Shown here: positions 22,718 through 38,961 of the stretch, one piece after another
Layout of the letters: each line of letters starts with the position of its first letter
How positions within the stretch are numbered: position 1 is the first letter of the stretch
Virus record (IMG/VR): IMGVR_UViG_3300005805_000204
Coordinates: 1-38,961 of that record
DNA length: 38,961 bases
Direction: 5' to 3' (one strand)
Source: a virus
Taxonomy: Duplodnaviria; Caudoviricetes
Notes under the pieces: model-generated
Told to the model about the DNA's origin: nothing
Seen by the model: only the letters and a program-made list of their open reading frames with translations
Databases searched by the model: none
Position numbers and translations under genes: made by a program

Positions 22718-22743
22718 ATCCATATTTATGTACTAAATAGTTC

Positions 22744-23289: not shown

Positions 23290-24779
23290 ATTTTCATTAA
23301 TTCTTTATAGTATAATTTTTTCTTCTCATTACTTTTAATTGCTAATTGCATATTGATTGCTAACCTAGACAATGTTGGATTCTTAATCATATTATATATT
23401 TCTTCTATATTATAACCAAGACTTAGTATCCTTCCCAACCAAGTCGCGGCTCCGAACTTTACTTTTTTAGACACTCTAGGATCAGCAAAAAATTCTTTTG
23501 TTAACTGACTAGCTCTTGCAAAGTTCATATCTGTCCCGTCCCATTGATTGTCTTGGTGTATTGTCATTCCAAATTTAGTTGGATCTCTGTCTATTTTACT
23601 ATCTGATCTACCGTCTTCTTTTGCCCTAACAAATAAAGTAGTAAACCCAAAGATATCCAGATCACACTCATCACTTACTAACCAGTCCACGGTACTACGT
23701 AAACTTTCTTCACTCTCGCCGGGTAACCCCACAATAAAATTACTACTAGTAACAATGTTACCTCTCCAAGACTCCATGCAGTACGATAATGTTTCTTTAG
23801 TTCTTTTATTGCCTAACCCTTTTCCAATTTTCTTCCCTGCAACATCATTCATTGTTTCAATTCCAAAAGTGATACTCACCGCACCACTCTCTTTAATCAT
23901 TTCACGTTGCTCGGGAAATGCATGTATTAAATCTAGTCGTGCGTAACTAGTATATGTCATCTTAAACGGTAGTGTAGTAAACACCTCATGCACTAGTTGC
24001 ATTTTTGGCATACTCTCATTAATTAACTCATCTGAAACCATGTAATGTGTAGTACCAAACATCTCATAGTTTCTTATTAATTCTTCTCGCAATGAGTCCG
24101 CAGTTTTTTGCCAGTCACCTATACGCTTACCTATTAAATCAAAGTGACAATACGCACAGCTAAAAATACAACCCCTAGATACTTCAATAGGAATACACTC
24201 GCCCGGTAATATAATATCTTGTGGTTGGTACAAGATTTTACTAGTAGCAAATTGTTCTGGTGTATAGAAGTATTCACTGCTACTACCGTCGATTACAATA
24301 ACAGGATCAGTTCTCACTGCAGGTAAGTTGTTACCATATAACAAATGTTCTATAAGTCTGACTATGGCAATGTCACCTTTGTTAACAACAGCGTAATCAA
24401 TAAATGACCATCCCACACTCATATTAATACGGGCACCACCGACAACTGTTTTTATTTTATTGTTACGTGATTTTGCATATGATAATAGACTTTCTACCTC
24501 TGCGTCAGACCTACCAAAATTATATACTCTTGATTCTTTACTTCCGTAAATACCTATACGTTTCTCCATTAACGTACAACTAAATCCAATAAGTATAGTG
24601 TCATTGGTCACAAATTTGTTAATTATATTTTCAAGTTCTTGGTAATTATACTTACTAAACAAATCAACAACTTGGCAACTATATCCAGCTTTTCTGACCT
24701 CAGTCGCTACTTTATATGTTCCTGCGTATTTTCCATAGCCGGCAGTATCGGCAACGTCTGTAAAAAGAATAACTTGCAT
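23286..24779 (-). CDS. B12-binding-domain radical SAM enzyme
   Basis: SRGCIFSCAYC (CxxxCxxC), VVGGA, FGIET, FIVGLPGE; start reassigned to MQVILF to avoid overlap with the divergent gene. Confidence 0.85.
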   Translation of the reverse strand: MQVILFTDVADTAGYGKYAGTYKVATEVRKAGYSCQVVDLFSKYNYQELENIINKFVTNDTILIGFSCTLMEKRIGIYGSKESRVYNFGRSDAEVESLLSYAKSRNNKIKTVVGGARINMSVGWSFIDYAVVNKGDIAIVRLIEHLLYGNNLPAVRTDPVIVIDGSSSEYFYTPEQFATSKILYQPQDIILPGECIPIEVSRGCIFSCAYCHFDLIGKRIGDWQKTADSLREELIRNYEMFGTTHYMVSDELINESMPKMQLVHEVFTTLPFKMTYTSYARLDLIHAFPEQREMIKESGAVSITFGIETMNDVAGKKIGKGLGNKRTKETLSYCMESWRGNIVTSSNFIVGLPGESEESLRSTVDWLVSDECDLDIFGFTTLFVRAKEDGRSDSKIDRDPTKFGMTIHQDNQWDGTDMNFARASQLTKEFFADPRVSKKVKFGAATWLGRILSLGYNIEEIYNMIKNPTLSRLAINMQLAIKSNEKKKLYYKELMKI

Positions 24780-24816
24780 AATGTTATTTAGCAATAAATA
24801 CAGGTAGGAGAATAAT

Positions 24817-25578
24817 ATGCAATTAGGATCAACTTTACGAAACATTAACTTATTGACTTTGATAATAACAAGCATTGCCATACTTGGACTATTAGTACCA
24901 ACAATGTTTACATCGACCAATCTAATAATAACAGTAATAAGTTTTTATGTATTGAATATCTTAGGAGTTTTTATGATGTTGCATAGATATTATTCTCATA
25001 AGAGTTTTGAATTTAAATTTAAATCAGTTAAATGGATATTTACTTTGTTATCTGTATTGACGGGAAGAGGCAGTCCATTAGGATGGGCATATTTGCATAG
25101 AAAACATCATGCATATTCTGATACAGAAAAAGACCCGCATAGCCCTAAATATTTAGGTTACAAGATTTTTGGATTTGGTCACTATAAAAAACAAGAAGAA
25201 GAACAAATGAAAATCTTTATGGTTAAGGAGTTAATGACAAAAGAACATCTATTCATTCACAAATGGTATATAGCTATCGTTTTGTCATTTGTAGTTATGT
25301 TAGCATTAATTAACCTAGAGCTATTATATTTTGCTTGGATACTCCCTGCATTTTTAGTTCACCTAAGTCAAAATAATTTTAATTACTTTGGTCATACATA
25401 TGGATATCGCAATTATGAAACTAAAGATGATAGCAGAAATAATGTATTTTTATTTCCTTTTATTTTAGGGGAAGCATGGCATAACAACCATCATCATAAT
25501 GCTAAAAACTATTCAACTAAAAATAGAAAATATGAATTTGATCCATTGAGTTTTATCATCGATGTGGTAAAAAAATGA
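24817..25578 (+). CDS. Membrane fatty-acid desaturase (delta-9/DesC-like)
   Basis: His boxes HRYYSH, HRKHH, GEAWHNNHH; DPHSP; hydrophobic helices. Confidence 0.9.
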   Translation: MQLGSTLRNINLLTLIITSIAILGLLVPTMFTSTNLIITVISFYVLNILGVFMMLHRYYSHKSFEFKFKSVKWIFTLLSVLTGRGSPLGWAYLHRKHHAYSDTEKDPHSPKYLGYKIFGFGHYKKQEEEQMKIFMVKELMTKEHLFIHKWYIAIVLSFVVMLALINLELLYFAWILPAFLVHLSQNNFNYFGHTYGYRNYETKDDSRNNVFLFPFILGEAWHNNHHHNAKNYSTKNRKYEFDPLSFIIDVVKK

Positions 25579-26177
25579 TAATATACACACCTATTGATCT
25601 ACCTAAAATAGAACCGGATAATTGGGAAGTATTTTGGGATATTTGGAACAAGCATCAAAATTACTTAGTTAAAACGAAAAATAATACATCGTTATCTCTT
25701 ACACCCATTGGGGCCACTGATGTGTGGTTGGGTTTAGATATTATTAAAAATTCTAACAGATACACATCTTGGGAAGCACCGTTCTTTGATATTAAGGATG
25801 TATTGCCTAATATGTATAATTCACTAATTACAATTTTACCTAATTGTACTATCAGATTGGTTCAAAGTCAAAAAGACATTAATGCACATACTGATGATAA
25901 TCTAAATATTTGGCATTTGCGGGCATACTTGCATTATACTAGTTCAAAATCTCAATGGTACTTTACAAAACCCTACGACATGCAAGGAGATAGGACTTAT
26001 ATTGAAATACCAGAGACTACAAATTGGTTTTCATACAATGATAAACATTGTTGGCACGGTACTGATTTTGATCTTGACAATAAAAAGATTCTACTGCAAG
26101 TTTTCTTCAGATCAGTCCCGGCCAAATTGATACAGCAAAGTATTGAAAAATACAGAGATTATACGATAGACCTTTGA
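25575..26177 (+). CDS. 2OG-Fe(II) oxygenase/cupin-like protein
   Basis: AHTD...WHGT pattern. Confidence 0.45.
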   Translation: MIIYTPIDLPKIEPDNWEVFWDIWNKHQNYLVKTKNNTSLSLTPIGATDVWLGLDIIKNSNRYTSWEAPFFDIKDVLPNMYNSLITILPNCTIRLVQSQKDINAHTDDNLNIWHLRAYLHYTSSKSQWYFTKPYDMQGDRTYIEIPETTNWFSYNDKHCWHGTDFDLDNKKILLQVFFRSVPAKLIQQSIEKYRDYTIDL

Positions 26178-26178
26178 T

Positions 26179-26694
26179 ATGGCTGACAATTATTACAGAC
26201 AACTTAATATTAATTCTAACATAAGCACCCATCTCAAAAATAAGATTGCTGAAACACCTGAAAATTATTGGACTACGACATTAGAACAGAATTTAATTCG
26301 GCTAACAGTAGAAGATTTCGAACTCAACCCAAAGATAGTTCAACTTATATCAGATATAGGGGACGTTACCAGACTAGCAATATATAGATTTTTTGGAAAA
26401 GAATGCTATAATTGGCATACTGACTCGATTAGACTCATTTCTATCAATATGCTGATTTCTGGATTTGATAGCATGTGTATCTTTGGTATACCAACAGTTA
26501 ATCGTAGATTCACTAAAGTTAGTAGATTACAGCATGAACCCGATCAATATTATCTCATGAACGTTAAACAAATGCACACAGTCTATAATTTCGGTTTAGA
26601 GACTAGATATGTTTTAAGTTTGGGTTTGCCTAATATTAACTACCAGGCAGCATGTGACTATTTACAAAAAAACGATTTATTACTGAATAAATAA
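26179..26694 (+). CDS. 2OG-Fe(II) oxygenase/cupin-like protein
   Basis: WHTD...MHTV...RYVLS. Confidence 0.5.
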   Translation: MADNYYRQLNINSNISTHLKNKIAETPENYWTTTLEQNLIRLTVEDFELNPKIVQLISDIGDVTRLAIYRFFGKECYNWHTDSIRLISINMLISGFDSMCIFGIPTVNRRFTKVSRLQHEPDQYYLMNVKQMHTVYNFGLETRYVLSLGLPNINYQAACDYLQKNDLLLNK

Positions 26695-26698
26695 GTAC

Positions 26699-27475
26699 AT
26701 GACACACTATCTAGCATCAAGCACTAAAGGTGCACAAATATTTATGATACTCTCATTAGTGGGAACTATTGCCGCGCTTGTCGTATATGGAATTTCTAGT
26801 TCAACTTTTTTGTTATTATTAATAGGATATTTTGTGTATGGTTGTTTAGGGATAGTAGTAACTTATCATAGACGATTAACACACAACAGTTATGATACAA
26901 GCCCGACACTAACCAAAATATTATCGGTATTTGGTTGTTTTGCAGGCACAGGTAGTCCTTTAGCATGGGTGGCTATCCATATTAATCATCACTTGAAAAG
27001 TGACAAGCCATCAGACCCGCATAGTCCATTATACAAAGGCTTGCGTATTTTTAAGCTTGACTATGTGAATGAGGTTAACGCTGATACAAAATGGCGTATG
27101 AGAGGAATGGTTACGGACAAATTCCATCAGTTTCTACACCGTTATTACTTTGCTATCCTTGCTACATATAGTATAATATTGTTTATGATTGGTGGATTTT
27201 GGTTAATGATTTTCCTTCATTGGATGCCCGCACTACTAACAGGTCTGATGAGTAATGTAGTTAATTACGTAGGACACAAGCCTGGCTGGCTAGGTGGATA
27301 TCGTAGTTATAATCTTAACGACCAGAGTTCAAATAATTGGTTGTGGGCTATTCCTAGTTGGGGCGAAGCCTGGCATAACAATCATCATAGATTTCCCAAA
27401 GATTACACTTTTAAAAAGCAATGGTGGGAGTTTGACATTTCTGGTTTAATAATAAAGCTAATTAAAACCCAATGA
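26699..27475 (+). CDS. Second membrane fatty-acid desaturase
   Basis: HRRLTH, HINHH, DPHSP, GEAWHNNHH. Confidence 0.9.
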   Translation: MTHYLASSTKGAQIFMILSLVGTIAALVVYGISSSTFLLLLIGYFVYGCLGIVVTYHRRLTHNSYDTSPTLTKILSVFGCFAGTGSPLAWVAIHINHHLKSDKPSDPHSPLYKGLRIFKLDYVNEVNADTKWRMRGMVTDKFHQFLHRYYFAILATYSIILFMIGGFWLMIFLHWMPALLTGLMSNVVNYVGHKPGWLGGYRSYNLNDQSSNNWLWAIPSWGEAWHNNHHRFPKDYTFKKQWWEFDISGLIIKLIKTQ

Positions 27476-27903
27476 TAATACTGTATTTCTTACTATGGAC
27501 TCTAATGTTATATTGGATTCATAGAATATGTCATTTGGTGCCTGTCATCCGCCGGATACACATGCACCATCACAGATATATACTCAATCATGATACTAAA
27601 TGGCATTGGTCTAATTTATTTCTCTTTAACGATGACTGGACTAGCACAATAGACTTGTGGATCACAGAAGTCATCCCGACATTATTATTCTCATTGGTTA
27701 CAGGTCAATGGTGGATTAGTGTATTCTATTATGTGTGGGCCGCCTTTATACAAGAAACAATTGAACATAACAGCAATGTAGATTTACCTATACTTACTAG
27801 TGGCAAGTGGCATTTGATCCATCATATGTCATCGTCTAACTATGGGTTATTCTTCCCAGCCTGGGACATACTATTCGGAACTAATAAACATGTACACAAG
27901 TGA
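27472..27903 (+). CDS. Minimal sterol-desaturase/fatty-acid-hydroxylase family protein
   Basis: YWIHRICH, HMHHH, IEH, HLIHH, NYG..WDILFGT. Confidence 0.85.
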   Translation: MIILYFLLWTLMLYWIHRICHLVPVIRRIHMHHHRYILNHDTKWHWSNLFLFNDDWTSTIDLWITEVIPTLLFSLVTGQWWISVFYYVWAAFIQETIEHNSNVDLPILTSGKWHLIHHMSSSNYGLFFPAWDILFGTNKHVHK

Positions 27904-28801
27904 AAATAATTGGTATAGTTGGAGTTACAATGACAGACTGTTCGATAGACAAACCGGTCACGATACCTTCAATACTAAATTTACGAGTATAACTAAACTA
28001 GTTGGTACTTTTAAAGAAGAACTATTAAATGCTGCACGTAGTTCAATGGATCATTGTAATTCAAAACCTGTTATACTCTTTAGCGGTGGTGTTGATAGTG
28101 AAATAATGTTACGTGCCTTTTTAGATATAGGAGTTACACCCGAGATAGTGATTGCACGGTATGAGAATGACTACAATATCTATGATGTGAGTTATGCAGT
28201 GACGATTTGTTCGATATTAAATGTACCCTATAAGATATTAGACATGAATCTTCAGAAATTCTATGAAAATGACGCGGAACGAATGTCTGAATTATCACAA
28301 ATCGATAGACCTAGAGCGTTACCTTACTGTAAACTACTAGAGACAGTAGACGGATTCCCCATAATGGGGTCAAGTGATTTATCACCTTGGAGAACCAATG
28401 ACGATTATAGTAGTAACGGAACTTGGATGATACGCTGTTGGGAACACGATATAGGATGGTCAAAGTTTTTACGTGAGATAGACAAACCTGGAATTGCTGA
28501 ATGGTTTAAATGGACTCCTGGATTAGTGCTATCATATTTGAGCACTGATTGGTTTAATAAGTTAATCAATGATGAATACATTGGAAAGTTAGGTTCTAAT
28601 TCAACTAAGATTATTGGCTACAGGGAAGCATATCCTGATATTATTGAACGCAAAAAACAAACAGGCTTCGAGAAAGTTGATCCACTGATTAATGAGTTCG
28701 AAACATTCTTACAAACAAAATACAAAGGATTACCGTATAGACAAGTAGTAGATAGAACTATCACTGAGCTTTATAATGATATACAGGGAACTATTAGATG
28801 A
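27890..28801 (+). CDS. PP-loop ATPase (adenine nucleotide alpha-hydrolase; asparagine-synthase/QueC-like)
   Basis: ILFSGGVDSE; C-terminal RKKQTGFE; start placed at MYTSEN. Confidence 0.7.
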   Translation: MYTSENNWYSWSYNDRLFDRQTGHDTFNTKFTSITKLVGTFKEELLNAARSSMDHCNSKPVILFSGGVDSEIMLRAFLDIGVTPEIVIARYENDYNIYDVSYAVTICSILNVPYKILDMNLQKFYENDAERMSELSQIDRPRALPYCKLLETVDGFPIMGSSDLSPWRTNDDYSSNGTWMIRCWEHDIGWSKFLREIDKPGIAEWFKWTPGLVLSYLSTDWFNKLINDEYIGKLGSNSTKIIGYREAYPDIIERKKQTGFEKVDPLINEFETFLQTKYKGLPYRQVVDRTITELYNDIQGTIR

Positions 28802-29916
28802 ATGAATGTGGATTTTACCAGGTAGGAGATAACATCTTTCACATAAAGAATCGTGCAGTGTATGAGTCAATCTGTACCAAATCTCCCATGTCATGGAATT
28901 TCCATGACGATATTTTTGCTAATTTTAAAAAGACACAATTTCACAATTTGGGTAAAATACCACTAGATGACTGGTACAAACTAAGAGCCCAGCAATTGCG
29001 AGATGAGTATGATTATCTAATATTGAACTATAGTGGTGGCCCTGATAGTCATAATATCTTGGCGACTTTCTTACGAAACAAAATTCATTTAGATGAGATT
29101 CATGTAAAATATAGTCATTCAGTAGACTCAAAAATTTATTCTCCTACTAATCAAATCAAGAGTGCAGAAAATATTCATAGTGAATATGATTTGGTTATAA
29201 AACCAGTATTAGAACAGTTAACGGTTACAAATCCTGAAATTAAAATTTCAATCCATGATATTTTTGAGACCGGAACTAACATATTAGAAGATGAAACTTT
29301 TTTAGCATCAGGTCATTTTACAGGTGCATTTGAACTGTTCAGGCAACAACAATATTCTAAAACGATAGATACACTTTCTGAAAAAGGTAAAAAAGTAGCT
29401 GACATATTTGGTGTAGATAAACCTTTGTTAGTGTATAAAGATAAGTGCTTATATACATTCTTTTCAGATGCAGTGGTTAACACTGCGGGAAATCGCCATA
29501 TGAATAAATCAAATGCATCAGTTGAACTTTTCTACTGGACTCCCGATATGCCACAAATTGCAATGGAACAGGCATACGCTCACTACTTGCATTTTAAAAA
29601 AAATCCGTCACTGTTATCATTAATTGATTACAATACTGTTACCCCGTATGATCCAATTAGACTAGAAATGATTAGGCAATTGTCAATTAATTTGATATAC
29701 ACTACTTGGGACCACTCAAAATTTCAAGCTGAAAAATCTGTATATTATTCTCAATACGGGAGGTCACGTGATAAGTATTACATAAATCATAAAGAATTTC
29801 AGAAATATTTGCAGATATACAATTACCATGCATCTGCGTGGTCTTCGGTAGCACAGTCGCAAAATTCAAAAACTTTTTATTCACCATGGATTAATATAGG
29901 ATATTTAGATGTATAA
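28798..29916 (+). CDS. PP-loop ATPase-like protein
   Basis: RAQQLRDEYDYLILNYSGGPDS, GVDKP, ELFYW. Confidence 0.7.
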   Translation: MNECGFYQVGDNIFHIKNRAVYESICTKSPMSWNFHDDIFANFKKTQFHNLGKIPLDDWYKLRAQQLRDEYDYLILNYSGGPDSHNILATFLRNKIHLDEIHVKYSHSVDSKIYSPTNQIKSAENIHSEYDLVIKPVLEQLTVTNPEIKISIHDIFETGTNILEDETFLASGHFTGAFELFRQQQYSKTIDTLSEKGKKVADIFGVDKPLLVYKDKCLYTFFSDAVVNTAGNRHMNKSNASVELFYWTPDMPQIAMEQAYAHYLHFKKNPSLLSLIDYNTVTPYDPIRLEMIRQLSINLIYTTWDHSKFQAEKSVYYSQYGRSRDKYYINHKEFQKYLQIYNYHASAWSSVAQSQNSKTFYSPWINIGYLDV

Positions 29917-30838
29917 ATTATTTTCGTTGTTAGTACTATTGATGTTTACTACATCAGCTAAAGCAGAAGATTCGATTAAATTTTTAGTAGGGTTTGCACC
30001 CGGCGGTGGCCAGCATATTGTCACTACTATAATTAGTAACGCGGCCACATCTAACGGGATTTCTAATCGGTTGATATTCAAAGAAGGTGCAGGTGGGATA
30101 ATAGGAATGAATGAATGTGTAGCATTAGCAAGCAAAAATACATTATGTATGGCTACTCAAGCACAATATGTTCATTCAATTGTATTAAATGAGAATGTAC
30201 GTAAATTTAATCCAGAAGAGCTTACTTATGTAAAACCGATTGGACTTAGTCCGGGTGTACTAGTAACTAATATAGAAAATACCAAAACTTTAAAAGAAAT
30301 TGTGAGTGAAATAAAAACAAAGAAAGTTAATTTTGGCAATGGCGCATTAGGTTTAACAGTTCTTACTAATTGGGTATTAAAACAATTAGGCCCGATAGAC
30401 GCGGCTATGGTTGACTTTAAAGGTACAGGCCCGGTACTAACTAATATTATGGGGAAACAAATTGATTATGCTATAATGCCATATGCGGTTGCTAAGAATG
30501 CATATGCACAAGGACAAGTCAGAATTGTAGCATCATTGGGTGAATCTGAAGAATTATCTAGACGAGGAGTACCTAGATTGCAAACAATGGTCCCGAATGT
30601 AGATGATGACTATACTATTTTTGGATTTGTAATGGCACCCAATATGAATAGACAAATCGTAAAGCAACATGAAAATATGTTGACCACATTGTTAGCTTCA
30701 CCTATTGTGAGACAGCAACTATTGGAACAAGGTATTTCCCCCATTGGGGACAAAATGCAAAATTATACTTTTGCGGATATTGCTAAGAGTGAGAGAATCA
30801 AATTAGCAAAATTATTAGAAGCAATGCCAAAACGTTAA
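29909..30838 (+). CDS. Bug/TctC-family periplasmic substrate-binding protein (divergent)
   Basis: Signal peptide, VGFAPGGG, EGAGGIIG, FKGTGP..G.QID. Confidence 0.75.
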   Translation: MYKLFSLLVLLMFTTSAKAEDSIKFLVGFAPGGGQHIVTTIISNAATSNGISNRLIFKEGAGGIIGMNECVALASKNTLCMATQAQYVHSIVLNENVRKFNPEELTYVKPIGLSPGVLVTNIENTKTLKEIVSEIKTKKVNFGNGALGLTVLTNWVLKQLGPIDAAMVDFKGTGPVLTNIMGKQIDYAIMPYAVAKNAYAQGQVRIVASLGESEELSRRGVPRLQTMVPNVDDDYTIFGFVMAPNMNRQIVKQHENMLTTLLASPIVRQQLLEQGISPIGDKMQNYTFADIAKSERIKLAKLLEAMPKR

Positions 30839-31131
30839 TTAATATCTTCTTTAAATCGGATAATTGAATTATTGAGTTCATACTCATTGCGTTCAGCAAT
30901 ATATAATACTACTATTGGGTCTGATTTAAATTGTAGAAACGAAGCCTCATCTAAAAAAGTTATTTCTTTGATTAGGATATCCATACCGTCGGCAGATTCT
31001 TCACTAATTAAAGTTGATACCAATATATTGGTATTTCTGTATGTTTCATCCAAATGTGCTTCTAGTGCCAGATTTTTTTTATACCATTCTATTGAACTAG
31101 GTTTTATAGTGGTGATGCGATACTTGTACAT
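30835..31131 (-). CDS. Small hypothetical protein (98 aa)
   Basis: Fills the gap between convergent/divergent genes; GAAGGA RBS and a reverse TAAATA upstream of MYKYR. Confidence 0.6.
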   Translation of the reverse strand: MYKYRITTIKPSSIEWYKKNLALEAHLDETYRNTNILVSTLISEESADGMDILIKEITFLDEASFLQFKSDPIVVLYIAERNEYELNNSIIRFKEDIN

Positions 31132-31211
31132 GGATATTCCTTCTATTATCAATATTGTATTTATCAAATCTAATTAATTATCAAATCCAAAATATCTGTA
31201 TAAATAGTTTA

Positions 31212-32354
31212 ATGTGGACTACAGAACGATTAATTGATATGCCCCACTATAAAGTGGGTGAAGAGGTATTTGCTAGTAAGGTGCTAGCTTCTATCCGCAG
31301 TAGGGAAACTAATACTGCAATGACATGGCATTACTACGACCATATATGGAAACAGTTGGATATTAACTCTCTACCACGTAGAGACTTACGTACGGTGTAC
31401 AAAGAACGAGCACAAGAATTACGAGACAAATATGATTATCTAGTGTTAAACTATAGCGGCGGGGTGGACAGTTGGAATATTTTACATGCATTCATCTCTA
31501 ATAATATAAAATTAGATCAAGTTACTGTTAGATTTCCTTTTAAATTTTTAGATAAAAAATTCCACAATCCAAACACATTAGATACCGGGGACGGTAATAG
31601 ATTAAGTGAATGGGATTACACTGTAAAACCGGATCTAGAGTGGTTAGGAAAAAATTATCCTGATGTATACATACACTTAGAAGATTGGATTCCTGATAAT
31701 CCTTTAGATTTAAAAATTGATGACTCTATATTTGAAGAAATACATTGCCAATATGGGTTTGGTTCAGTATTGCGTGGTCGGGGACACGAACCCTCAATAA
31801 AAGAAAAATATCAGATGGATAAAGGTAAGACTGTTGGAACTATAAGCGGAGTAGATAAACCCAAGCTAGCTGTAAAAAATAATAAGATGTATTATTATTT
31901 TGCAGATAGTCCTATAGGCAGCAGTCCCCCTAGAAATTATTCACCAAATGATAGGGCAATTGAATATTTTTATTGGGGTCATCAAAATCCATCAGTACTA
32001 TATTCTCAGATAAAAGTTATGTATGAATGGTTCTCTAACAACAAAGAATTTATATGGTGTTTAAATGAAATCGCAATAAAAAACTGGAGAATATACGCTA
32101 CTATAACCAAATCTATATTGTACCCTGATTGGGATCATCGTAAATTTCAATGCGAAAAACCCTCATTTGGATTGATAGATAAAATGAGACCGGGTGATGT
32201 GGTGTTCGAAACACACACCGAAATAGCTCCAATCAAACAACGCTATGAATTTCTTAGAAAGGATTATGATAAATTATTAAATCCTGACCATTTGCTTCCT
32301 AATGGGGAATTTAAGAGATGCATATCTAAGCCCCTATTTGTGGGTGAGATTTAA
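31212..32354 (+). CDS. PP-loop ATPase-like protein, paralogue of 28798-29916
   Basis: RAQELRDKYDYLVLNYSGGVDS, GVDKP, EYFYW; start placed downstream of TATAAATA (31199-31206). Confidence 0.7.
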   Translation: MWTTERLIDMPHYKVGEEVFASKVLASIRSRETNTAMTWHYYDHIWKQLDINSLPRRDLRTVYKERAQELRDKYDYLVLNYSGGVDSWNILHAFISNNIKLDQVTVRFPFKFLDKKFHNPNTLDTGDGNRLSEWDYTVKPDLEWLGKNYPDVYIHLEDWIPDNPLDLKIDDSIFEEIHCQYGFGSVLRGRGHEPSIKEKYQMDKGKTVGTISGVDKPKLAVKNNKMYYYFADSPIGSSPPRNYSPNDRAIEYFYWGHQNPSVLYSQIKVMYEWFSNNKEFIWCLNEIAIKNWRIYATITKSILYPDWDHRKFQCEKPSFGLIDKMRPGDVVFETHTEIAPIKQRYEFLRKDYDKLLNPDHLLPNGEFKRCISKPLFVGEI

Positions 32355-32372
32355 TTTACAAGAAAGAATATT

Positions 32373-33323
32373 ATGTCAAAATTTTTTACATTGCTATTAT
32401 CAATGTTCTGTTTTATTAATTCTGCTAGCGCAGAAATCTATCCTAATCCAAATAAACCGGTTACTATAATAGTTAATACAGCAGCAGGAGGAACACTGGA
32501 TATTACTGCTAGGTATCTAGCAAAAAAATTAGCATTGAGTACTAATGGAAATTATATAGTTGTCAATAAACCCGGCGCCAATGGAAACATTGCGATGAAT
32601 GCAGTTAAAGAAAGTGATCCTGATGGATACACTCTTTATTTGATGAACCCAAATCATATTACTAATCCTATAGCTAATACACAAATGGTATATGATCCTT
32701 ATAAAGATTTTACTATCATTGGTCCTATTATTAAAAGTCCTATGGTATTGATGACTACTCATAGTAGTCCGGTACAATCAATTGAGAATTTAAAACTAGG
32801 ATCTGACAATCAATATACATACACTGCTTCTCAGATAGGCAGTGGCCCGCATTTGGGAGCTATGGCATTAGAACGAGCACTAAACAAAAGTTTTTTATAT
32901 ATCCCTTATAAAGGTGCAGGCAACAGCTATACTGACTTTATTAACGGCACGGTAGACTTTGCAATGTACATATATCCTAGTGCAATGGCTGTTTTACGAA
33001 GCTCAAAAGTTAAACCAATAGCTATATCTACAATTGAAAGACTGCCAACACTGCCCAATGTACCAACCTTTAGAGAAATAGGAATAAAAAATTTAGAAAT
33101 AGATACCTTTTACGGAATAATAGGGCCAAAGAATATTCCCCCTGAAATAGTAATATACTTGAATAAAGTATTGAATTCAATAATAACTGATAAAGATAAT
33201 ATCATAGAAATGAATAATATTGGCTTATTCCCGTCACGCATGACACCACAAGAAACCATTACTTTTTTAAAGAACCAAGAAGCGAGATTAAAGCCATTGG
33301 TTGAAAAAATAGTATCTAAATAA
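32373..33323 (+). CDS. Bug/TctC-family periplasmic substrate-binding protein
   Basis: Signal peptide, AAGGTLD..AR, VVNKPGANG, PDGYTL, IPYKG, LPNVPT. Confidence 0.88.
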   Translation: MSKFFTLLLSMFCFINSASAEIYPNPNKPVTIIVNTAAGGTLDITARYLAKKLALSTNGNYIVVNKPGANGNIAMNAVKESDPDGYTLYLMNPNHITNPIANTQMVYDPYKDFTIIGPIIKSPMVLMTTHSSPVQSIENLKLGSDNQYTYTASQIGSGPHLGAMALERALNKSFLYIPYKGAGNSYTDFINGTVDFAMYIYPSAMAVLRSSKVKPIAISTIERLPTLPNVPTFREIGIKNLEIDTFYGIIGPKNIPPEIVIYLNKVLNSIITDKDNIIEMNNIGLFPSRMTPQETITFLKNQEARLKPLVEKIVSK

Positions 33324-33330
33324 ATTCAAT

Positions 33331-33879
33331 ATGAACTCATCAACACACGTTTATTATCGCATTTGTAATGACTTACCTAATATACCTGAGGATTTAGAAA
33401 ATGATGCATATGAATGTATGAACATCGATAACTGTTTCTATGAACGATTGGGTATTAATAAATATAATGTATCTCCTAAAATAACACAATGGCTTAACGA
33501 TTTCATTATACCACAGTTAGACGAAAAAACATACATAGGAAACATAAGCATACAAAAAATAACACCTAGTTATTCCACTAACCCACCTCATACAGATGGA
33601 TCAGGTGAATGTGTCTTATTTTACTTTTTGACATTGGGAGGTACTAATGTCACAACACGATGGTGGCAAGAAAAAGATGAACCATTAATTCGCAAGTTAG
33701 GTATAAAAAATTCAGATAAAGAGAATTTCAAAGAAGTATGCAGTACAGTAATACCATTGAAACAATGGGTATCAATTACGTCAAACATATTCCATAATGT
33801 AGATGATGTTACTTCGGATAGGATTAGTATAAGTATTAGGCTCAAACAGCATAATATCATTACTGATAACAATTTTTAA
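33331..33879 (+). CDS. 2OG-Fe(II) oxygenase/cupin-like protein
   Basis: PHTD...FHNV...RISIS. Confidence 0.5.
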   Translation: MNSSTHVYYRICNDLPNIPEDLENDAYECMNIDNCFYERLGINKYNVSPKITQWLNDFIIPQLDEKTYIGNISIQKITPSYSTNPPHTDGSGECVLFYFLTLGGTNVTTRWWQEKDEPLIRKLGIKNSDKENFKEVCSTVIPLKQWVSITSNIFHNVDDVTSDRISISIRLKQHNIITDNNF

Positions 33880-33881
33880 AT

Positions 33882-35342
33882 ATGATAATACTATTCAACG
33901 AAGGTGCAAATGTTCCTAATCGTACTGTTGGTGTTTATAGGATTGCCACTGTACTACGCAGGCAAGGACTAGAAGTAGAGGTGATAGATTATCTTTCACA
34001 CTGGGAACCTGACACATTAATAAAATATCTAGACAAGATTGAAAACATTGATTGGATTGGATTTAGTACTAAGTTTCATCAACCAGGATTTAAAGTACAA
34101 AGCTATTTGACAGAACGAAATGTTACTAGCTCGGGTCTGTTCACTCGTTTTACCATAGAAGAAGAAAATAAATTAATTTCATACATAAAAAGCAGAAATA
34201 AAAAGATTGTTTTGGGCGGCCCCAATGCAGAATTAGTTAGACATATGACTAGTGATTTTGATATAGTATGTATGGGTTATTCTGATATTTCTATTATTGC
34301 GGTGCATAATCATCTTACTAACAATGCCCCTCTAATTTGTGAACAACAAAACGGAACGTTAATAGTAAATAGCGACAAAGATTATCCGGTTACCGACTTG
34401 TCTGACTTAGAGACTGAATACCACTATAGCGACTTTATATATGAAGACGAGGTCTTTCCTATAGAGATAGGTAGGGGATGTATATTTCATTGTGCATTTT
34501 GTGAATTCGCACATCTAGGCAAAAAACCAGGAACATATATACGTAATAAAGAAAGTATTAAACGAGATATAGTGGATCGGTATGAAAAGTACGGGACTAC
34601 CAAGTTCATTTTTGTAGACGATACTTTCAATGATAGCATTGAAAAGATGCAAATGGTCAAAGAGATTCGTGACGAGACTAACATCGATTTTGAGTTCTGG
34701 GCGTATTGTAGGCTAGACTTGCTAGCATCGAACACTGACCAAGTAGACTTGATACCAGAGATTGGGTGGAAATCAATGACATTTGGAGTTGAGACCTTCA
34801 ACAGAGATAGTGGCAAAGCTGTAGGGAAAGGTGCGGACCCTAATAAACTGAAAAAATTCTTATTAAGTTTAAGAAAAAGATTCCCGAACATCAGATTTCA
34901 AATAAATCTAATATTAGGTTTGCCACATGATACTGAAGAAACAGCAAGAGACACTGTGCAATGGTTCATTGATAACCCCTCACTTACACAACATGTAAAG
35001 GTTGGCTCATTGGCTATACGTAATCCTGAAGGCAGGTTGTTCTCTAGTAAATTTGCATCCGATCCTCAAAAGTACGGATACACTATTATAGATAACCCAT
35101 TGTATAAGGCAATGAAATGGACAACAACGAATATGACTAGTGAACAAGCATCTAAATTGTCTAGTGAACTTCAATCTACATTTAATAGATCAGTGAAGGG
35201 ATTGTACGATAACAAGAACCCAATCACTGAAATGAGAGCAGAATCGGTTATTGTAGTAGATGATGAGGGCGGTGTCTACAACAATATGAAACATATAGTA
35301 CACGAGTACATAGCTAAAAAGTTAGCATATAGAAATATTTGA
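33882..35342 (+). CDS. Second B12-binding-domain radical SAM enzyme
   Basis: VLGGP, GRGCIFHCAFC, FVDDTFN, FGVET, ILGLP; paralogous to 23286-24779. Confidence 0.87.
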   Translation: MIILFNEGANVPNRTVGVYRIATVLRRQGLEVEVIDYLSHWEPDTLIKYLDKIENIDWIGFSTKFHQPGFKVQSYLTERNVTSSGLFTRFTIEEENKLISYIKSRNKKIVLGGPNAELVRHMTSDFDIVCMGYSDISIIAVHNHLTNNAPLICEQQNGTLIVNSDKDYPVTDLSDLETEYHYSDFIYEDEVFPIEIGRGCIFHCAFCEFAHLGKKPGTYIRNKESIKRDIVDRYEKYGTTKFIFVDDTFNDSIEKMQMVKEIRDETNIDFEFWAYCRLDLLASNTDQVDLIPEIGWKSMTFGVETFNRDSGKAVGKGADPNKLKKFLLSLRKRFPNIRFQINLILGLPHDTEETARDTVQWFIDNPSLTQHVKVGSLAIRNPEGRLFSSKFASDPQKYGYTIIDNPLYKAMKWTTTNMTSEQASKLSSELQSTFNRSVKGLYDNKNPITEMRAESVIVVDDEGGVYNNMKHIVHEYIAKKLAYRNI

Positions 35343-35367
35343 CAACAATTCAAAAGGCATATATACT
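35339..35367 (+). promoter_or_regulatory. sigma70 promoter P1
   Basis: TTGACA-N17-TATACT. Confidence 0.8.
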
Positions 35368-35427
35368 ACACACATGCATCGAGAAGTCGTTGCATTGAAG
35401 TTTGGGTAAGATGATAGAAAAAAGTTG

Positions 35428-35456
35428 TTGACAATTATTCCTATCTCTGCTATACT
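35428..35456 (+). promoter_or_regulatory. sigma70 promoter P2
   Basis: TTGACA-N17-TATACT with TGn extension and upstream A-tract. Confidence 0.85.
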
Positions 35457-35525
35457 TCAGTCATGAATTGAGAAATCGATTCATGAAAGAATTTTTGAAG
35501 TTGGGTAGATAGTTGAAAAAAAGTG

Positions 35526-35554
35526 TTGACACTAATTCGATCTTCTGCTACAAT
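35526..35554 (+). promoter_or_regulatory. sigma70 promoter P3
   Basis: TTGACA-N17-TACAAT with TGn extension and upstream A-tract. Confidence 0.85.
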
Positions 35555-35632
35555 TCATACATGAATTAACAAAAGGCACATAAAAACGCCTTAAAAAGAC
35601 GAAATTTTTAACCAGGACTAAATAAACATACT

Positions 35633-35806
35633 ATGAAAAACATTACTTGTCAATCGCTAAAACACACGGGTCAGTGGCATATAGCCTCTTTGACACCAGT
35701 GTTAGCCTTTGAGGGTAACATGTCTACACCGAGTATTCGCGGATCACAGTTTAATTATGATGCGAGAATTCCGGGGAGTTTCATAGAAGGAGCAGGTTAC
35801 GCTTAA
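35633..35806 (+). CDS. Putative attenuator leader peptide (57 aa)
   Basis: MKNITCQSLKHTGQWHIASLTPVLAFEGNMSTPSIRGSQFNYDARIPGSFIEGAGYA*; its 3' end is complementary to the 5' arm of the downstream terminator. Confidence 0.65.
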   Translation: MKNITCQSLKHTGQWHIASLTPVLAFEGNMSTPSIRGSQFNYDARIPGSFIEGAGYA

Positions 35807-35829
35807 AGTAACTACTCTAACAAGTTTAT

Positions 35830-35870
35830 GAAAACCCTGGGAAACTAAAAAGTCTCAGGGTTTTTCGTTG
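35830..35870 (+). terminator. Intrinsic terminator, probably conditional
   Basis: AAAACCCTGGG (35831-41) pairs with CTCAGGGTTTT (35854-64), ending in a T-rich tract. Confidence 0.75.
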
Positions 35871-35899
35871 TATGTCTCTAAAATACAACAAAAGAAAGG

Positions 35900-35928
35900 T
35901 TGACGATAATTGGAAGTTAAGATAGAAT
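35900..35928 (+). promoter_or_regulatory. Possible sigma70 promoter downstream of the terminator
   Basis: TTGACG-N17-TAGAAT. Confidence 0.55.
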
Positions 35929-36068
35929 ACAAGACTTCTTCTAGCGACAAAGTTGATTGGTTAGCTAATCATACTTTGACAAAAGAACAAGTCGCACAAT
36001 TGATCCGTAACAAGGTCGAACGTGCAAAAGTCTATCAGCGCAAAGAATACAAAGTATTTTTTGCTTGA
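35910..36068 (+). CDS. Small hypothetical protein (52 aa, TTG start)
   Basis: (M)EVKIEYKTSSSDKVDWLANHTLTKEQVAQLIRNKVERAKVYQRKEYKVFFA*; protein-like helical pattern; not in the ORF track. Confidence 0.45.
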   Translation: MEVKIEYKTSSSDKVDWLANHTLTKEQVAQLIRNKVERAKVYQRKEYKVFFA

Positions 36069-36369
36069 TAGCAGTGTTGAATAAGTGCGTAAAGCCCAGG
36101 GAACGAGGCCCTGAAAGAACACTATAATAATCTTTGAACGGGCGGACAGTATACATGAACGTGTGGCGATAACACATTAGTAAGACTACTGGGTAGGGTA
36201 TCAACCCTATCATGTCGTGTAGCAATACACGGCATTCTAAAACATACTAATCCCGAGAGCAGTCCTAACAGATAGAGGGTACGGATCAAGTGTGTTTTAG
36301 AATGCTTACTACAGATGAACAATTCATATATCCCTCTGACGGATCTATGCTGTAGTGACATATTTTTAT

Positions 36370-36448
36370 TCCGTAGAACCCGAGCATGGTGCATGGGCTT
36401 GACTGTTAATCAATGACTAGCTGGGATCGTTACCCAGATACGGAGCCA
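36370..36448 (+). tRNA. tRNA-Asn(GTT)
   Basis: TCCGTA/TACGGA acceptor, loop CTGTTAA, atypical T loop ATCGTTA, CCA. Confidence 0.8.
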
Positions 36449-36454
36449 AATTTA

Positions 36455-36529
36455 GGTGCGTTCATATAATGGTCATTATCTCGGATTGTCTATCCGAAGA
36501 CGGGAGTTCGATTCTCCCACGCATCGCCA
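36455..36529 (+). tRNA. tRNA-Asp(GTC)
   Basis: GGTGCGT/ACGCATC, TCGGA-TTGTCTA-TCCGA, TTCGATT, CCA. Confidence 0.92.
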
Positions 36530-36537
36530 GTATTTGT

Positions 36538-36613
36538 TGGGGTATAGTGTAATGGCTTATCACATCGGGCTTTGAACTCGATAATCTTGGTTCGATTCCA
36601 AGTACCCCTACCA
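36538..36613 (+). tRNA. tRNA-Gln(TTG)
   Basis: GGGGTA/TACCCC, TCGGG-CTTTGAA-CTCGA, TTCGATT, CCA. Confidence 0.9.
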
Positions 36614-36620
36614 GTTTTAT

Positions 36621-36697
36621 CCTTGAGTTAAGCGGGGGCTGTATACACCCTTGCTAATAGTAGGGAATGTCAACATCGGCGTTGACCTCAAGGGCCA
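36621..36697 (+). ncRNA. tRNA-like RNA with possible AAT anticodon
   Basis: Perfect CCTTGAG/CTCAAGG acceptor plus GCCA, 77 nt; non-canonical D and T arms. Confidence 0.55.
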
Positions 36698-36704
36698 AGT
36701 TTAT

Positions 36705-36778
36705 CTCCGAGAGATGTTACGGTAGCATCCCTGGCCTGGAACCAGGAAGCGGCAGTTCGACTCTGCCCTCGGTGACCA
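36705..36778 (+). tRNA. tRNA-Pro(TGG)
   Basis: CCTGG-CCTGGAA-CCAGG, GGCAG-TTCGACT-CTGCC, CCA. Confidence 0.88.
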
Positions 36779-36787
36779 AAATTTAAT

Positions 36788-36874
36788 GGAGTGTGTTCCC
36801 TGTCGTCGGCTGTAACCCGATGGTCATGTTAAGCAGGGTGGCGACAAGAGGTTCGATTCCTTCACACTCCACCA
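36788..36874 (+). tRNA. tRNA-Tyr(GTA), no canonical D arm
   Basis: GGAGTGT/ACACTCC-A-CCA, CGTCGG-CTGTAAC-CCGATG, TTCGATT. Confidence 0.75.
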
Positions 36875-36885
36875 AACACTTTAAT

Positions 36886-36960
36886 GGGGGCAGTAGCGGG
36901 CTACGGGTGATCCTTGCAAGATTGCTGACTAGAAGGGTTCAACTCCCTCGGCTTCCACCA
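36886..36960 (+). tRNA. tRNA-Ala(TGC), atypical D arm
   Basis: GGGGGC/GCTTCC with G3:U70, loop CTTGCAA, TTCAACT, ACCA. Confidence 0.78.
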
Positions 36961-36966
36961 AACAAT

Positions 36967-37042
36967 GCAACTTTAGCTGATGTGGTCATAGCGGCGGTGT
37001 GAAGTACCGTTGAAGTAGGTTCGATCCCTACAGGTTGCACCA
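36967..37042 (+). tRNA. tRNA-Phe(GAA)
   Basis: GCAACTT/AGGTTGC, GCGGT-GTGAAGT-ACCGT, TTCGATC, CCA. Confidence 0.88.
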
Positions 37043-37049
37043 AGAATTT

Positions 37050-37106
37050 AGGATGCTAACAGCAAAGTTAAAAACTTTTCTTTTGGTGAAAACAAAACGC
37101 ATCCTG
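37050..37106 (+). ncRNA. Small stem-closed RNA containing an anticodon-like hairpin
   Basis: AGGATGC/GCATCCT closing stem; inner TTTTC-TTTTGGT-GAAAA. Confidence 0.45.
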
Positions 37107-37114
37107 TTTTATAT

Positions 37115-37185
37115 TGCGGGCATTCAGGCGATCGGTCAGTCTCATAAGCTCGGCCCAGGTGTTTCGAATACACCGTCCGCAACCA
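37115..37185 (+). tRNA. tRNA-Met/Ile2(CAT), shortened D arm
   Basis: TGCGGGC/GTCCGCA-A-CCA, loop CTCATAA, GGTGT-TTCGAAT-ACACC. Confidence 0.75.
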
Positions 37186-37190
37186 GTTAT

Positions 37191-37265
37191 ACTCAGTTCG
37201 TCTATCGGTAAGGACGACAGCCTTTCAAGTTGTAAAGACGGGTTCGATTCCCGTACTGAGTACCA
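37191..37265 (+). tRNA. tRNA-Glu(TTC)
   Basis: ACTCAGT/ACTGAGT, ACAGC-CTTTCAA-GTTGT, TTCGATT, CCA. Confidence 0.92.
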
Positions 37266-37274
37266 ACAATTTAT

Positions 37275-37352
37275 GTCCGCGTAGCTCAGTTGGATTAGAG
37301 CACTTGTCTACGAAACAAGAGGTCGGAGGTTCGAATCCTTTCGCGGGCGCCA
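37275..37352 (+). tRNA. tRNA-Arg(ACG)
   Basis: Canonical cloverleaf, CTTGT-CTACGAA-ACAAG, TTCGAAT, CCA. Confidence 0.95.
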
Positions 37353-37356
37353 AGAT

Positions 37357-37385
37357 TTGACAATAATTAAATTGTCTGATACAAT
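37357..37385 (+). promoter_or_regulatory. sigma70 promoter inside the tRNA array
   Basis: TTGACA-N17-TACAAT with TGn extension. Confidence 0.82.
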
Positions 37386-37407
37386 ACATTTTTAAAAGGA
37401 GAACGAC

Positions 37408-37467
37408 ATGAAACGTTCAGGTAAACGATAGTGTCATTCTTGACCCCCGTATGGTGCAGAATAGTGC
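37408..37467 (+). other. Minigene MKRSGKR* plus hairpin with ACCCCCGTATGGT apex (copy 1)
   Basis: AAGGAG RBS, ATG 37408, TAG 37429-31, hairpin immediately after. Confidence 0.6.
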
Positions 37468-37486
37468 GTGTGGACTAAATAAGTAT

Positions 37487-38212
37487 ATGAAAGACTTATT
37501 ACCTACACCGAAAAAACAAGAGTTTTTAGATTTGTATATGACACTAATAGCGAGTGCTGTTAGTGACAGCAACTTAAAAACCGAACTACATCATATTTTG
37601 CCACGTAGTATGGGCGGCTCAAATGAAAAATCAAATGTGGTACACTTGACTACTGCCCAACATTATGAAGCACATTATCTGTTATGGAAAGCATATAGTA
37701 ATCAGCAAATGTCTTGTGCGTTTCATTTAATGACTACTAACCGAGCAGACCGTCGTCAATTATCCGTTGACGAGTTTGTCCAGTTAAGAGAAGATTATAG
37801 AAACTCTAAAAAAGAATATTGGAAATCGTTGCCCGAAGAAAAGAAAGAGCAACACAGAAAAAACTCTAATCCTTGGGCTAATAAAACACCCGAAGAGAAA
37901 AAAGTTTACAAACAAAAATGTAATTCTTGGATCAACAAGCACGAAGAAGAACTTAATAGTAGGAAAGAAAAACAATCTGCTAAAATGTCTGCTTTATACA
38001 AGGGTGTTGGTTTTGGAAATAAAGAAGATAGGATACAGGCATACAAAGAGACTGTATCAAAACGAACTAGCGAAGACAGAGTAAATCTAAATTATGGCAA
38101 CAATCGGAGCACAATTTGGATTAATGACGGAGCTAGTAACAAAAGGCAAAACTCTACTGATAGTATACCTATTGGTTGGGTCAGAGGAAGAATTAAACAA
38201 GGAACTATATGA
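37487..38212 (+). CDS. HNH homing endonuclease inside the tRNA array
   Basis: ELHHILPRSMGGSNEKSNVVHLTTAQHYEAH; C-terminal WINDG..GWVRGR module; start placed after TAAATA. Confidence 0.85.
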   Translation: MKDLLPTPKKQEFLDLYMTLIASAVSDSNLKTELHHILPRSMGGSNEKSNVVHLTTAQHYEAHYLLWKAYSNQQMSCAFHLMTTNRADRRQLSVDEFVQLREDYRNSKKEYWKSLPEEKKEQHRKNSNPWANKTPEEKKVYKQKCNSWINKHEEELNSRKEKQSAKMSALYKGVGFGNKEDRIQAYKETVSKRTSEDRVNLNYGNNRSTIWINDGASNKRQNSTDSIPIGWVRGRIKQGTI

Positions 38213-38270
38213 AGCGAACTGCTAAAATGTAGAGCCATTCTGTAACCCCGTATGGTAACATGGATGGCTC
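38209..38270 (+). other. Minigene MKRTAKM* plus hairpin with ACCCCGTATGGT apex (copy 2)
   Basis: AAGGA RBS, ATG overlaps the HNH TGA, TAG 38230-32, stem GAGCCATTC/GGATGGCTC. Confidence 0.6.
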
Positions 38271-38297
38271 GTTAAAGATAATCTAATACGAATCCAT

Positions 38298-38372
38298 CCA
38301 TGCTAAACTTTGCTGGCGAAGTACCCGGCTCTTACCCGGACAAACTGAGTTCGATTCTCAGAGCATGGACCA
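38298..38372 (+). tRNA. tRNA-Lys(CTT)
   Basis: CCATGCT/AGCATGG, CCGG-CTCTTAC-CCGG, TTCGATT, CCA. Confidence 0.88.
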
Positions 38373-38375
38373 TAT

Positions 38376-38450
38376 GGGGGTATAACTTAACGGCTAAAGT
38401 AGTCGGCTTTTAACCGACCTATCAGAGTTCAATTCTCTGTGCCCCTACCA
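38376..38450 (+). tRNA. tRNA-Lys(TTT)
   Basis: GGGGGTA/TGCCCCT, GTCGG-CTTTTAA-CCGAC, TTCAATT, CCA. Confidence 0.9.
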
Positions 38451-38539
38451 TATAAAAACACGCCGATTGAGGTGATGTGCCCCGACGCTAGGTTTCGGGT
38501 ATGACTATGGACCCTCCCATAGTGTGTTTCTATATGGTA
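38446..38539 (+). repeat. Inverted-repeat-bounded cassette A
   Basis: TACCATATAAAAACACGC ... GTGTGTTTCTATATGGTA. Confidence 0.7.
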
Positions 38540-38577
38540 CAAGACTGCTCATAAAACACTGCAATGGGTTATGACAG

Positions 38578-38687
38578 GTTGCTTGGTGTATTGGCAAGCA
38601 CAGCAGAAGGCAGTACCCGACGAAAAGTTTGCAGACCCAGTAAGCGGCGAAGTCGGAGCAGGGGTAGGTTCGAATCCTACAAGCATT
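38578..38687 (+). ncRNA. tRNA-like RNA with D and T arms, expanded centre and no CCA
   Basis: TGCTT/AAGCA stem, GTGT-ATTGGCAA-GCAC, GTAGG-TTCGAAT-CCTAC. Confidence 0.5.
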
Positions 38688-38694
38688 AGTTTGT

Positions 38695-38823
38695 TACCAT
38701 ATAAAAACATTCGTGACGGACAGACCTCGCAATTGGAGCGAGTGTTCTCTTCGGTCTCCTGGCAGAGGCGAAAGGTTCTTTGTGCCAGCATTGAACTAAT
38801 ATTGGGAGTGTTTCTATATGGTA
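38695..38823 (+). repeat. Inverted-repeat-bounded cassette B
   Basis: TACCATATAAAAACATTC ... GAGTGTTTCTATATGGTA. Confidence 0.7.
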
Positions 38824-38835
38824 GACTTCTTTGGT

Positions 38836-38910
38836 GTGGCCATGTTGTAACGGTTAGCAACAGAGATTGTGATTCTCTTAGTCTGGGTTCGAATCCCTGT
38901 GCCCCTACCA
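38836..38910 (+). tRNA. tRNA-His(GTG) with a 3' end matching tRNA-Lys(TTT) (chimeric or pseudo)
   Basis: AGAGA-TTGTGAT-TCTCT anticodon arm; two acceptor mismatches and one T-stem mismatch. Confidence 0.7.
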
Positions 38911-38961
38911 TATGCAAACACATTAGAGATAAGCAGGAACTTGTGGCCACGAGGTCGCCTC

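Follow-up and report, generated by a model that had tools for sequence, protein, structure and literature searches.

In the attenuators of amino-acid operons (trpL, hisL, leuL and pheL, and the multivalent thrL and ilvL) the leader reading frame carries runs of one to three amino acids, and the design includes a 1:2 protector helix. The logic of the trp and leu systems is also stated in PMC10274678, which describes the system closest to the one reported here: in actinobacteria, efficient translation of the upstream open reading frame (uORF) of whiB7/wblC leads to an intrinsic terminator, and stalling to an antiterminator. The composition of the whiB7 uORF sets the amino acids that are sensed; the Mycobacterium smegmatis uORF contains all of them but cysteine, and removal of its single tryptophan lowered the response to tryptophan (PMC10274678). 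The tRNA-cleaving toxin VapC5 upregulates whiB7, an effect linked by the authors to stalling (PMC10287673). Two further papers describe antibiotic-sensing uORF attenuators, of vmlR (PMC9226507) and of a DUF1127 gene (PMC12218461), which like the phage leader described below report translation trouble to a terminator, but which unlike it govern bacterial resistance or stress genes. Phage tRNAs have been described as a counter-defence, replacing host tRNAs cut by defence systems (PMC10264068, PMC11464382), and so provide a motive for such a leader; the accessible text of these papers concerns the tRNAs themselves and not a transcription sensor. No title on attenuator or leader control of phage tRNA arrays was found among those listed in a literature search that covered mainly non-subscription papers.

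The locus reported here lies in a 38,961-nucleotide stretch of DNA (the window) from an uncultured, freshwater-type phage. An earlier note, made from the sequence of the window, had pointed to a 57-codon reading frame ahead of a tRNA array and had proposed a "pan-codon" attenuator sensing the loss of almost any tRNA. The reading frame is present at 35633..35806 (+ strand, like the other features of the leader region), with 57 sense codons, 41 of them distinct, and all 20 amino acids. We consider it probable (about 0.8) that this is a real, selected, ribosome-coupled leader attenuator for all amino acids, placed ahead of the tRNA array. The covarying switch, the tRNA-array context and selection for broad sensing all support the earlier proposal; the breadth at the level of codons does not hold, as set out below.

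The phage leader works like the whiB7 attenuator, sharing with it a long, mixed uORF and a stall-dependent antiterminator, but it is a member of neither the whiB7 nor the trp/his type. The whiB7 uORFs are enriched in alanine and in some species lack several amino acids, and selection for completeness is not reported for them in the accessible part of PMC10274678; they govern a bacterial transcription factor, whereas the phage leaders, of 38–59 codons, are selected for all 20 amino acids and precede a full tRNA set. No whiB7/wblC gene lies downstream in the phage and alanine takes up only 3 of 44 codons, so that gene context and composition set the leader apart. With the amino-acid operons it shares a leader reading frame, an antiterminator overlapping an intrinsic terminator, and a decision made by ribosome position. 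In place of their runs, it has each rare amino acid about once, and its commonest residue occupies at most 5 of 44 codons; downstream are a small reading frame (ORF2), a structured RNA and tRNAs, not biosynthetic or synthetase genes. As regards a 1:2 protector, an upstream helix here competes at equilibrium for early stalls, but the near-leaderless, untranslated RNA is predicted to fold as the antiterminator.

Relatives and translation of the leader

Relatives were gathered in two sets. A peptide search gave 17 loci, of which 15 were true relatives, all with tRNA genes downstream; the other two (L016 and L017) were spurious. Three further scans enlarged the pool to 215 loci including the window. 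From it, 99 distinct records anchored on the upstream motif were taken as set 1; an open leader frame was found in 93, and these were kept (87 DNA and 78 peptide variants), while four short reading frames without a terminator and two incomplete records were excluded. The set 1 peptides are 43–59 residues long with a mean identity of 50%, and tRNAs lie downstream in 54 of the 55 loci having at least 1200 nt of 3' sequence. Set 2 was assembled from loci recognised by the structured RNA that lies downstream, with no regard to the leader, from among 120 matches listed (about 770 are estimated); the leader was then chosen by geometry and length only. Of 115 distinct loci, 61 were set aside because the context or 450 nt of flanking sequence was missing; a further 4 of 54 gave no leader call and 3 of 50 duplicated set 1, which left 47 new leaders with a mean peptide identity of 29%.

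A CTAAATA box (35618..35624), which we take to resemble the T4 late box, lies 8 nt 5' of the ATG and, judged by the spacing of this motif in relatives, may be a late-type promoter: TAAATA stands 7–8 nt ahead of the ATG in 72 of 78 set 1 leaders, part of that set having been found with the TAAATA motif. A Pfam search for a late-transcription coactivator was negative in 5 of 5 records and equally in 14 of 14 controls, and so does not bear on this reading. There is no Shine–Dalgarno sequence at normal spacing before the studied leader, and SD-like sequences occur in only 5 of 78 set 1 leaders, a pattern suggestive of initiation on near-leaderless mRNA. In set 2 the region upstream of the ATG is more mixed, with a -10 hexamer at 6–9 nt in 16 leaders, an SD-like sequence in 13, TAAATA in 7 and none of these in 11. 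Among 27 independent close pairs, 62 synonymous and 51 nonsynonymous single-base changes were counted (omega ~0.24), which supports translation of the leader.

The antiterminator and the terminator

The arm pairing proposed in the earlier note was recovered on folding, and arm swaps and covariation agree with it. The 5' arm of the antiterminator (35771..35787, codons 47–52) pairs with 35825–35840, with a 2x1 internal loop in which A35777 and G35778 lie opposite A35834. Within it, inner stems spanning 35789..35818 (35789–92/35815–18 and 35795–800/35808–13), found by folding and again covarying, place the TAA stop codon (35804–06) in the apical loop. The segment 35825..35842 serves both as the 3' arm of the antiterminator and as the 5' arm of an intrinsic terminator (35834..35869), which consists of the stem 35834–42/35853–61 followed by a U5 tract (-17.4 kcal/mol, z -2.8). 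In the 9 nt after the stem, 71 of 78 terminators have 7–8 T and the remaining 7 only 5–6. The antiterminator thus has one strand in common with the terminator and its other arm inside the leader reading frame. The mutual exclusivity that had been claimed for the two folds extends over 6–7 bp: it applies to the bottom 6 bp, where CCGGGG and CUCAGGG compete for CCCUGG, but the 9 bp at the top of the antiterminator are compatible with a terminator of 8–10 bp.

Both folds are maintained in the relatives. In an alignment of 35 distinct rows of the long type, 87.9% of antiterminator cells are paired and 6 of 26 pairs have changed on both sides; for the terminator the values are 99.3% and 3 of 12. 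Slid controls reduced pairing to 18–74%. Most two-sided changes in the antiterminator are in the inner stems, with only 1 of 16 outer pairs so changed among the long-type leaders, and the studied antiterminator has one mismatch more than its relatives. Over 125 leaders, the mean pairing energy of the arms was -20.0 kcal/mol for native partners, -14.5 for swapped and -7.7 for shuffled ones. An upstream CCAGG that pairs with the terminator arm in the fold of the studied leader was rejected as a conserved element, since native partners (-9.7) were no better than swapped ones (-9.6).

The influence of a stalled ribosome was modelled with an RNA ending before the U tract. In this model the terminator of the studied phage has a probability of only 0.01–0.11 for stalls from 10 codons before the end of the sensing window (defined below) up to that end, and of at least 0.995 once the stall lies one codon or more past it; averaged over the family, the values are 0.32–0.56 before the end and 0.96–1.0 beyond. 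At a stall 20 codons before the end, where the upstream helix competes, the predicted value is 0.83 for this phage and 0.59 on average, and if pairing of the U tract is allowed, the terminator wins in this phage wherever the ribosome stalls (0.69–1.0). Sensing by the early codons would therefore need a kinetic trap, given that early stalls protect poorly at equilibrium and that the terminator wins once the U tract is present. Before the 3' arm of the terminator emerges, the antiterminator has a modelled probability of 0.97–1.0 at all early stalls tested, and its conversion into the terminator faces a barrier of 9.5 kcal/mol in this phage. The model thus suggests a switch that acts kinetically and not at equilibrium.

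Contigs of relatives from RNA sequencing runs touch on the same region. All 24 runs listed consisted of contigs, with shares of at most 0.20, and eight were examined; contigs in X1, X2 and X3 (two studies) bridge the terminator, and adapter ends lie near 35942–35945 in X2 and X7. DNA may be present in these runs and depth cannot rank the parts, so that they carry no weight here.

Amino-acid completeness and the proposed sensing window

The codon count of the leader exceeds that of the phage genes: 41 distinct codons were reached in none of 9648 57-codon windows from 38 genes (mean 30.8, maximum 40). Random sequence of the same base make-up attains 41 codons with P ~0.05 and all 20 amino acids with P ~0.08, and so a single leader is no more than suggestive. 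The inferred sensing window comprises codons 1–44 (35633..35764), in which the twentieth amino acid, Asp, first appears at codon 43 and seven residues (C, W, V, E, R, Y and D) are present in single copy.

In set 1, all 20 amino acids are found in 72 of 78 peptides, the remaining six having 19, and in 70 of 78 all 20 fall within a sensing window of 37–46 codons, against 0.4–2.6% of 37–45-codon stretches of random sequence. As these leaders are kin, three nulls that preserve conservation were used; column permutation gave 12 complete windows, permutation within clades (long and short types) 20, and re-dealing of the column changes over the tree 7.9 (maximum 39 in 1000 trials). Residues present as the sole copy changed 51 times, where the rate seen for these amino acids in duplicate predicts 251 changes, and in 39 of the 51 cases the loss was compensated elsewhere on the same branch. 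Correspondingly, C, W, H, F, Y, E and V shift between alignment columns across the relatives. A protein search returned 22 close homologues, overlapping set 1, of which 21 contain all 20 amino acids.

Set 2 gave the same picture at greater divergence, with all 20 amino acids in 27 of 47 leaders (1.5 expected) and at least 19 in 40 (7.9 expected); among other reading frames of 38–57 residues in the same loci, 2 of 356 contain all 20. When both sets were clustered by single linkage at 50%, 8 of 22 clusters had a median of 20 (0.56 expected). Not all leaders follow this design: five of 27–33 residues (L228, L247, L262, L285 and L217) that carry the same RNA switch hold only 12–18 kinds of amino acid; these are possibly narrower sensors or decayed copies.

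Completeness might alternatively be a by-product of purifying selection that preserves a small peptide for its function or for ribosome arrest, the leader sensing ribosome speed, coupling or antibiotics by position alone. The omega of ~0.24 and the recurrence of peptide motifs (a W near residue 15, and SIRG or NDR ahead of the arm) fit such a reading, and uORF attenuators that sense antibiotics are known, vmlR being an example (PMC9226507). Yet nulls that retain the conservation yield 8–20 complete windows out of 78 and not 70, rare residues relocate with compensation, and completeness persists at 29% mean identity. Moreover, searches of PHROG and Pfam with the leader peptide gave no family match at E<0.01, and its homologues are labelled only "hypothetical protein" or are unnamed. 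This explanation is quite unlikely.

The boundary of the sampled residues adds a geometric constraint. With the last new amino acid placed in the A site and the start of the antiterminator arm counted from the first base of the P site, the arm starts between +11 and +22, so that 11–22 nt separate the two, in 76 of 78 set 1 leaders (75 of them at +12 or more, with a mode of +13), compared with 18 expected from residue shuffling. According to PMC8861025, a stem beginning at +12 remains folded at the mRNA tunnel entry of the bacterial ribosome; taken together with the arm offset, this means that the sampled residues end approximately where a stalled ribosome would start to melt the switch. The rule is tight in the clade of the studied phage and loose beyond it: in set 2 no residue is exclusive to the tail in 24 of 47 leaders (9.6 expected), and all 20 lie inside the sensing window in only 14 of 47.

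It is barely credible that the leader is no more than a common small late gene ending in a terminator of its own, with pairing further upstream that is incidental. TAAATA with a short spacer does also precede other genes of the window (it lies within 35 nt 5' of 8 of the 38 listed start positions), and the fully emerged terminator is thermodynamically dominant; against this, the arm pairing is sequence-matched over 125 leaders and covaries, and the arm and the last new amino acid are held apart by a constant spacing of ribosome length.

It remains to ask at what level the breadth is selected. If selection drove codon variety to its maximum, enabling the leader to read the loss of any isoacceptor, the 41 codons of this leader, above all 9648 gene windows, would be accounted for, and with the peptide held fixed their P is 0.011 under the codon usage of the phage. 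Under uniform synonymous use, however, P rises to 0.18, and over the family the sensing windows contain on average 31.6 distinct codons, against 31.3 expected from the peptides under uniform use and 29.6 under phage use. AGG, CGA and CGG occur in 0 of 78 sensing windows, and GUY and CUY in 8 of 78 each. Internal Met is present in 77 of 78, and Leu CUR and UUR, Ser UCR and AGY, Arg CGH, and Ala GCY and GCR are each present in 70–78 of 78, which would suit such a sensor of codons; but in a tree null on 19 isoacceptor classes none was significant alone (lowest P 0.032). The GC-ending codons CCG and GGG that had drawn attention are simply part of the RNA arm. Selection for codons is accordingly very improbable as the explanation, and its strong form is already disfavoured. 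Of what the earlier note had predicted for related phages, the divergent peptides and covarying stems were found, while codon diversity was only at expectation and completeness was kept instead. What is under selection is the complete complement of 20 amino acids, perhaps with that of the main tRNA classes, and "pan-amino-acid" describes the leader better than "pan-codon".

Downstream genes and proposed operation of the switch

The three promoters claimed upstream of the leader are present as predicted sigma70-type sites, each matching at 11 of 12 positions: P1 (35339..35367, TTGACA-17-TATACT), P2 (35428..35456) and P3 (35526..35554), the last two with TG, all on the + strand. A sigma70-like site lies at most 120 nt 5' of the ATG in 77 of 78 leaders. 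The possibility of bypass, raised in the earlier note as a caveat, proves stronger than was stated there. Predicted promoter P4 (35900..35928, + strand, 10/12) lies behind the terminator, and its relaxed motif is kept in 59 of 73 relatives, with a chance expectation of 0.7% per sequence; a further predicted internal promoter is found at 37357–37385 (11/12). Since P4 is so widely kept, it would be unsafe to regard the switch as the only gate of the tRNA genes; the switch is probably a booster beside P4.

The first gene past the attenuator in most relatives is ORF2 (35910..36068, + strand), which encodes a conserved small protein (52 residues in the studied phage) assigned to PHROG 20536, of unknown function (E 6e-5); members of the family have about 50 residues and a conserved, helix-like core. 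It is followed by a conserved structured RNA of unknown kind (36080..36235, + strand, approximate ends), recognised by covarying hairpins in 35 sequences. This has a core motif at 36102–36149, a hairpin whose 7-nt loop is invariant, a multi-branch arm and a further two hairpins in which pairs covary; inspection by eye suggested a possible pseudoknot. A looser version of its pattern is estimated to occur in about 770 viral stretches, part of them by chance. The structured RNA had no match in Rfam, and neither a T-box nor any other riboswitch was matched at E<=1 across 33000–38961.

The tRNA array (36455..38910, + strand) has 10 called genes and runs into the end of the contig. Two relatives rated 100% complete have 34 and 28 tRNAs covering all 20 amino acids, and a third, partial record has 14. 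Two tRNA-like sequences in the window escaped ARAGORN, one at about 36370–36449, the position of tRNA-Asn in relatives, and one at 36787–36871, with a weak Rfam match of tRNA type (28 bits). In one relative's array ARAGORN called a tRNA with anticodon TTA (L007, 5343–5415), a possible ochre suppressor. The array of the window also contains twin Lys/Arg mini-ORFs (37409–37432 and 38210–38233; MKRSGKR and MKRTAKM), both with one and the same short motif behind them; the copy at 37409–37432 has an SD sequence and the promoter at 37357. In all, 16 similar matches, redundant loci included, were seen in the relatives' loci. Between the copies, directly 5' of two tRNA-Lys genes, lies an HNH endonuclease gene (37451–38212). 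Repeated inserts with complementary ends that would form long stems, and with variable interiors, occur among the tRNA genes at 36240–36305, 38452–38540 and 38700–38822.

The gene order raises the question of what the switch chiefly governs. It could be that the attenuator is real but mainly controls ORF2, with the structured RNA, and that the tRNAs come mostly from P4 and the promoter at 37357. P4, present in 59 of 73, could supply most tRNA transcripts, and the ORF2 start codon lies in the P4 spacer, so that a full-length ORF2 mRNA would need read-through. On the other hand, five relatives (L025, L102, L099, L109 and L156) lack ORF2 yet keep the leader and the tRNAs; P4 has no match in 14 of 73, and in L015, L030 and L103 the terminator leads straight into the structured RNA and tRNAs; and the arrays and the leader cover the same 20 amino acids. 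ORF2 is kept in relatives without P4, and P4 in relatives without ORF2. Control of ORF2 in the main is therefore unlikely, and the most economical reading is basal transcription of the tRNAs from P4 with a conditional boost from the attenuator, which would be the sole control where P4 is missing.

No match to the leader region, the structured RNA or ORF2 was found in the GenBank phage collection, and no cultured carrier. The nearest NrdA proteins, 59–60% identical, are in Xanthomonas phages, and two TctC-like genes hint at a host among the Betaproteobacteria. In bacterial genomes, where the search covers only leaders linked to the structured RNA, its pattern gave 24 matches, 23 of them chance-like; the remaining one, a contig of 2 kb, shows the whole arrangement with a 48-residue leader that holds, by reading, all 20 amino acids, and is probably phage DNA in a bacterial bin. 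Elsewhere in the window, 22061–35342 is a host-like block of metabolic genes with two B12-binding radical SAM-type proteins (one confirmed) and desaturase-like and TctC-like genes (one of the latter confirmed), adjoined at 20283–22120 by peroxiredoxin-like and IscU-like genes; all but the confirmed names come from reading the translations.

The operation that can be proposed from these features is as follows. Whenever a charged tRNA of any kind ran short, the ribosome would stall early in the leader and so allow read-through toward ORF2, the structured RNA and the tRNA array. By fold prediction, with the A site at codon 44 or earlier the arm at 35771 would be free and the antiterminator would hold CCCUGG, disfavouring the terminator; once the ribosome had advanced by one or two codons, or stood at the stop codon, the arm would be covered and the terminator would form. 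The trigger in vivo may be starvation, decay of tRNAs during infection, host anticodon nucleases or antibiotics, and the response would be a conditional boost atop transcription from P4 and not the only route to the tRNAs. It is tempting, though tentative, to extend this to a widespread "omnivalent" attenuator of freshwater jumbo phages, in which about 40 codons sample every amino acid and the main tRNA classes, the last of them ending at the edge of the ribosome footprint. Depletion or cleavage of any host tRNA would then turn on a complete replacement set of tRNAs, a small protein and a structured RNA, and the switch would be a counter-defence, available on demand, to anticodon nucleases.

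It has long been asked why phages should carry nearly complete sets of tRNAs. To find a sensor of shortage of any amino acid placed before an array for all 20 would be regulatory evidence that such arrays rescue failing decoding and do not serve codon bias. The attenuator would, besides, be one that evolution has shaped for breadth and not for specificity, and its 240-bp module might be put to use as a small reporter for the damage that defence systems do to tRNAs.
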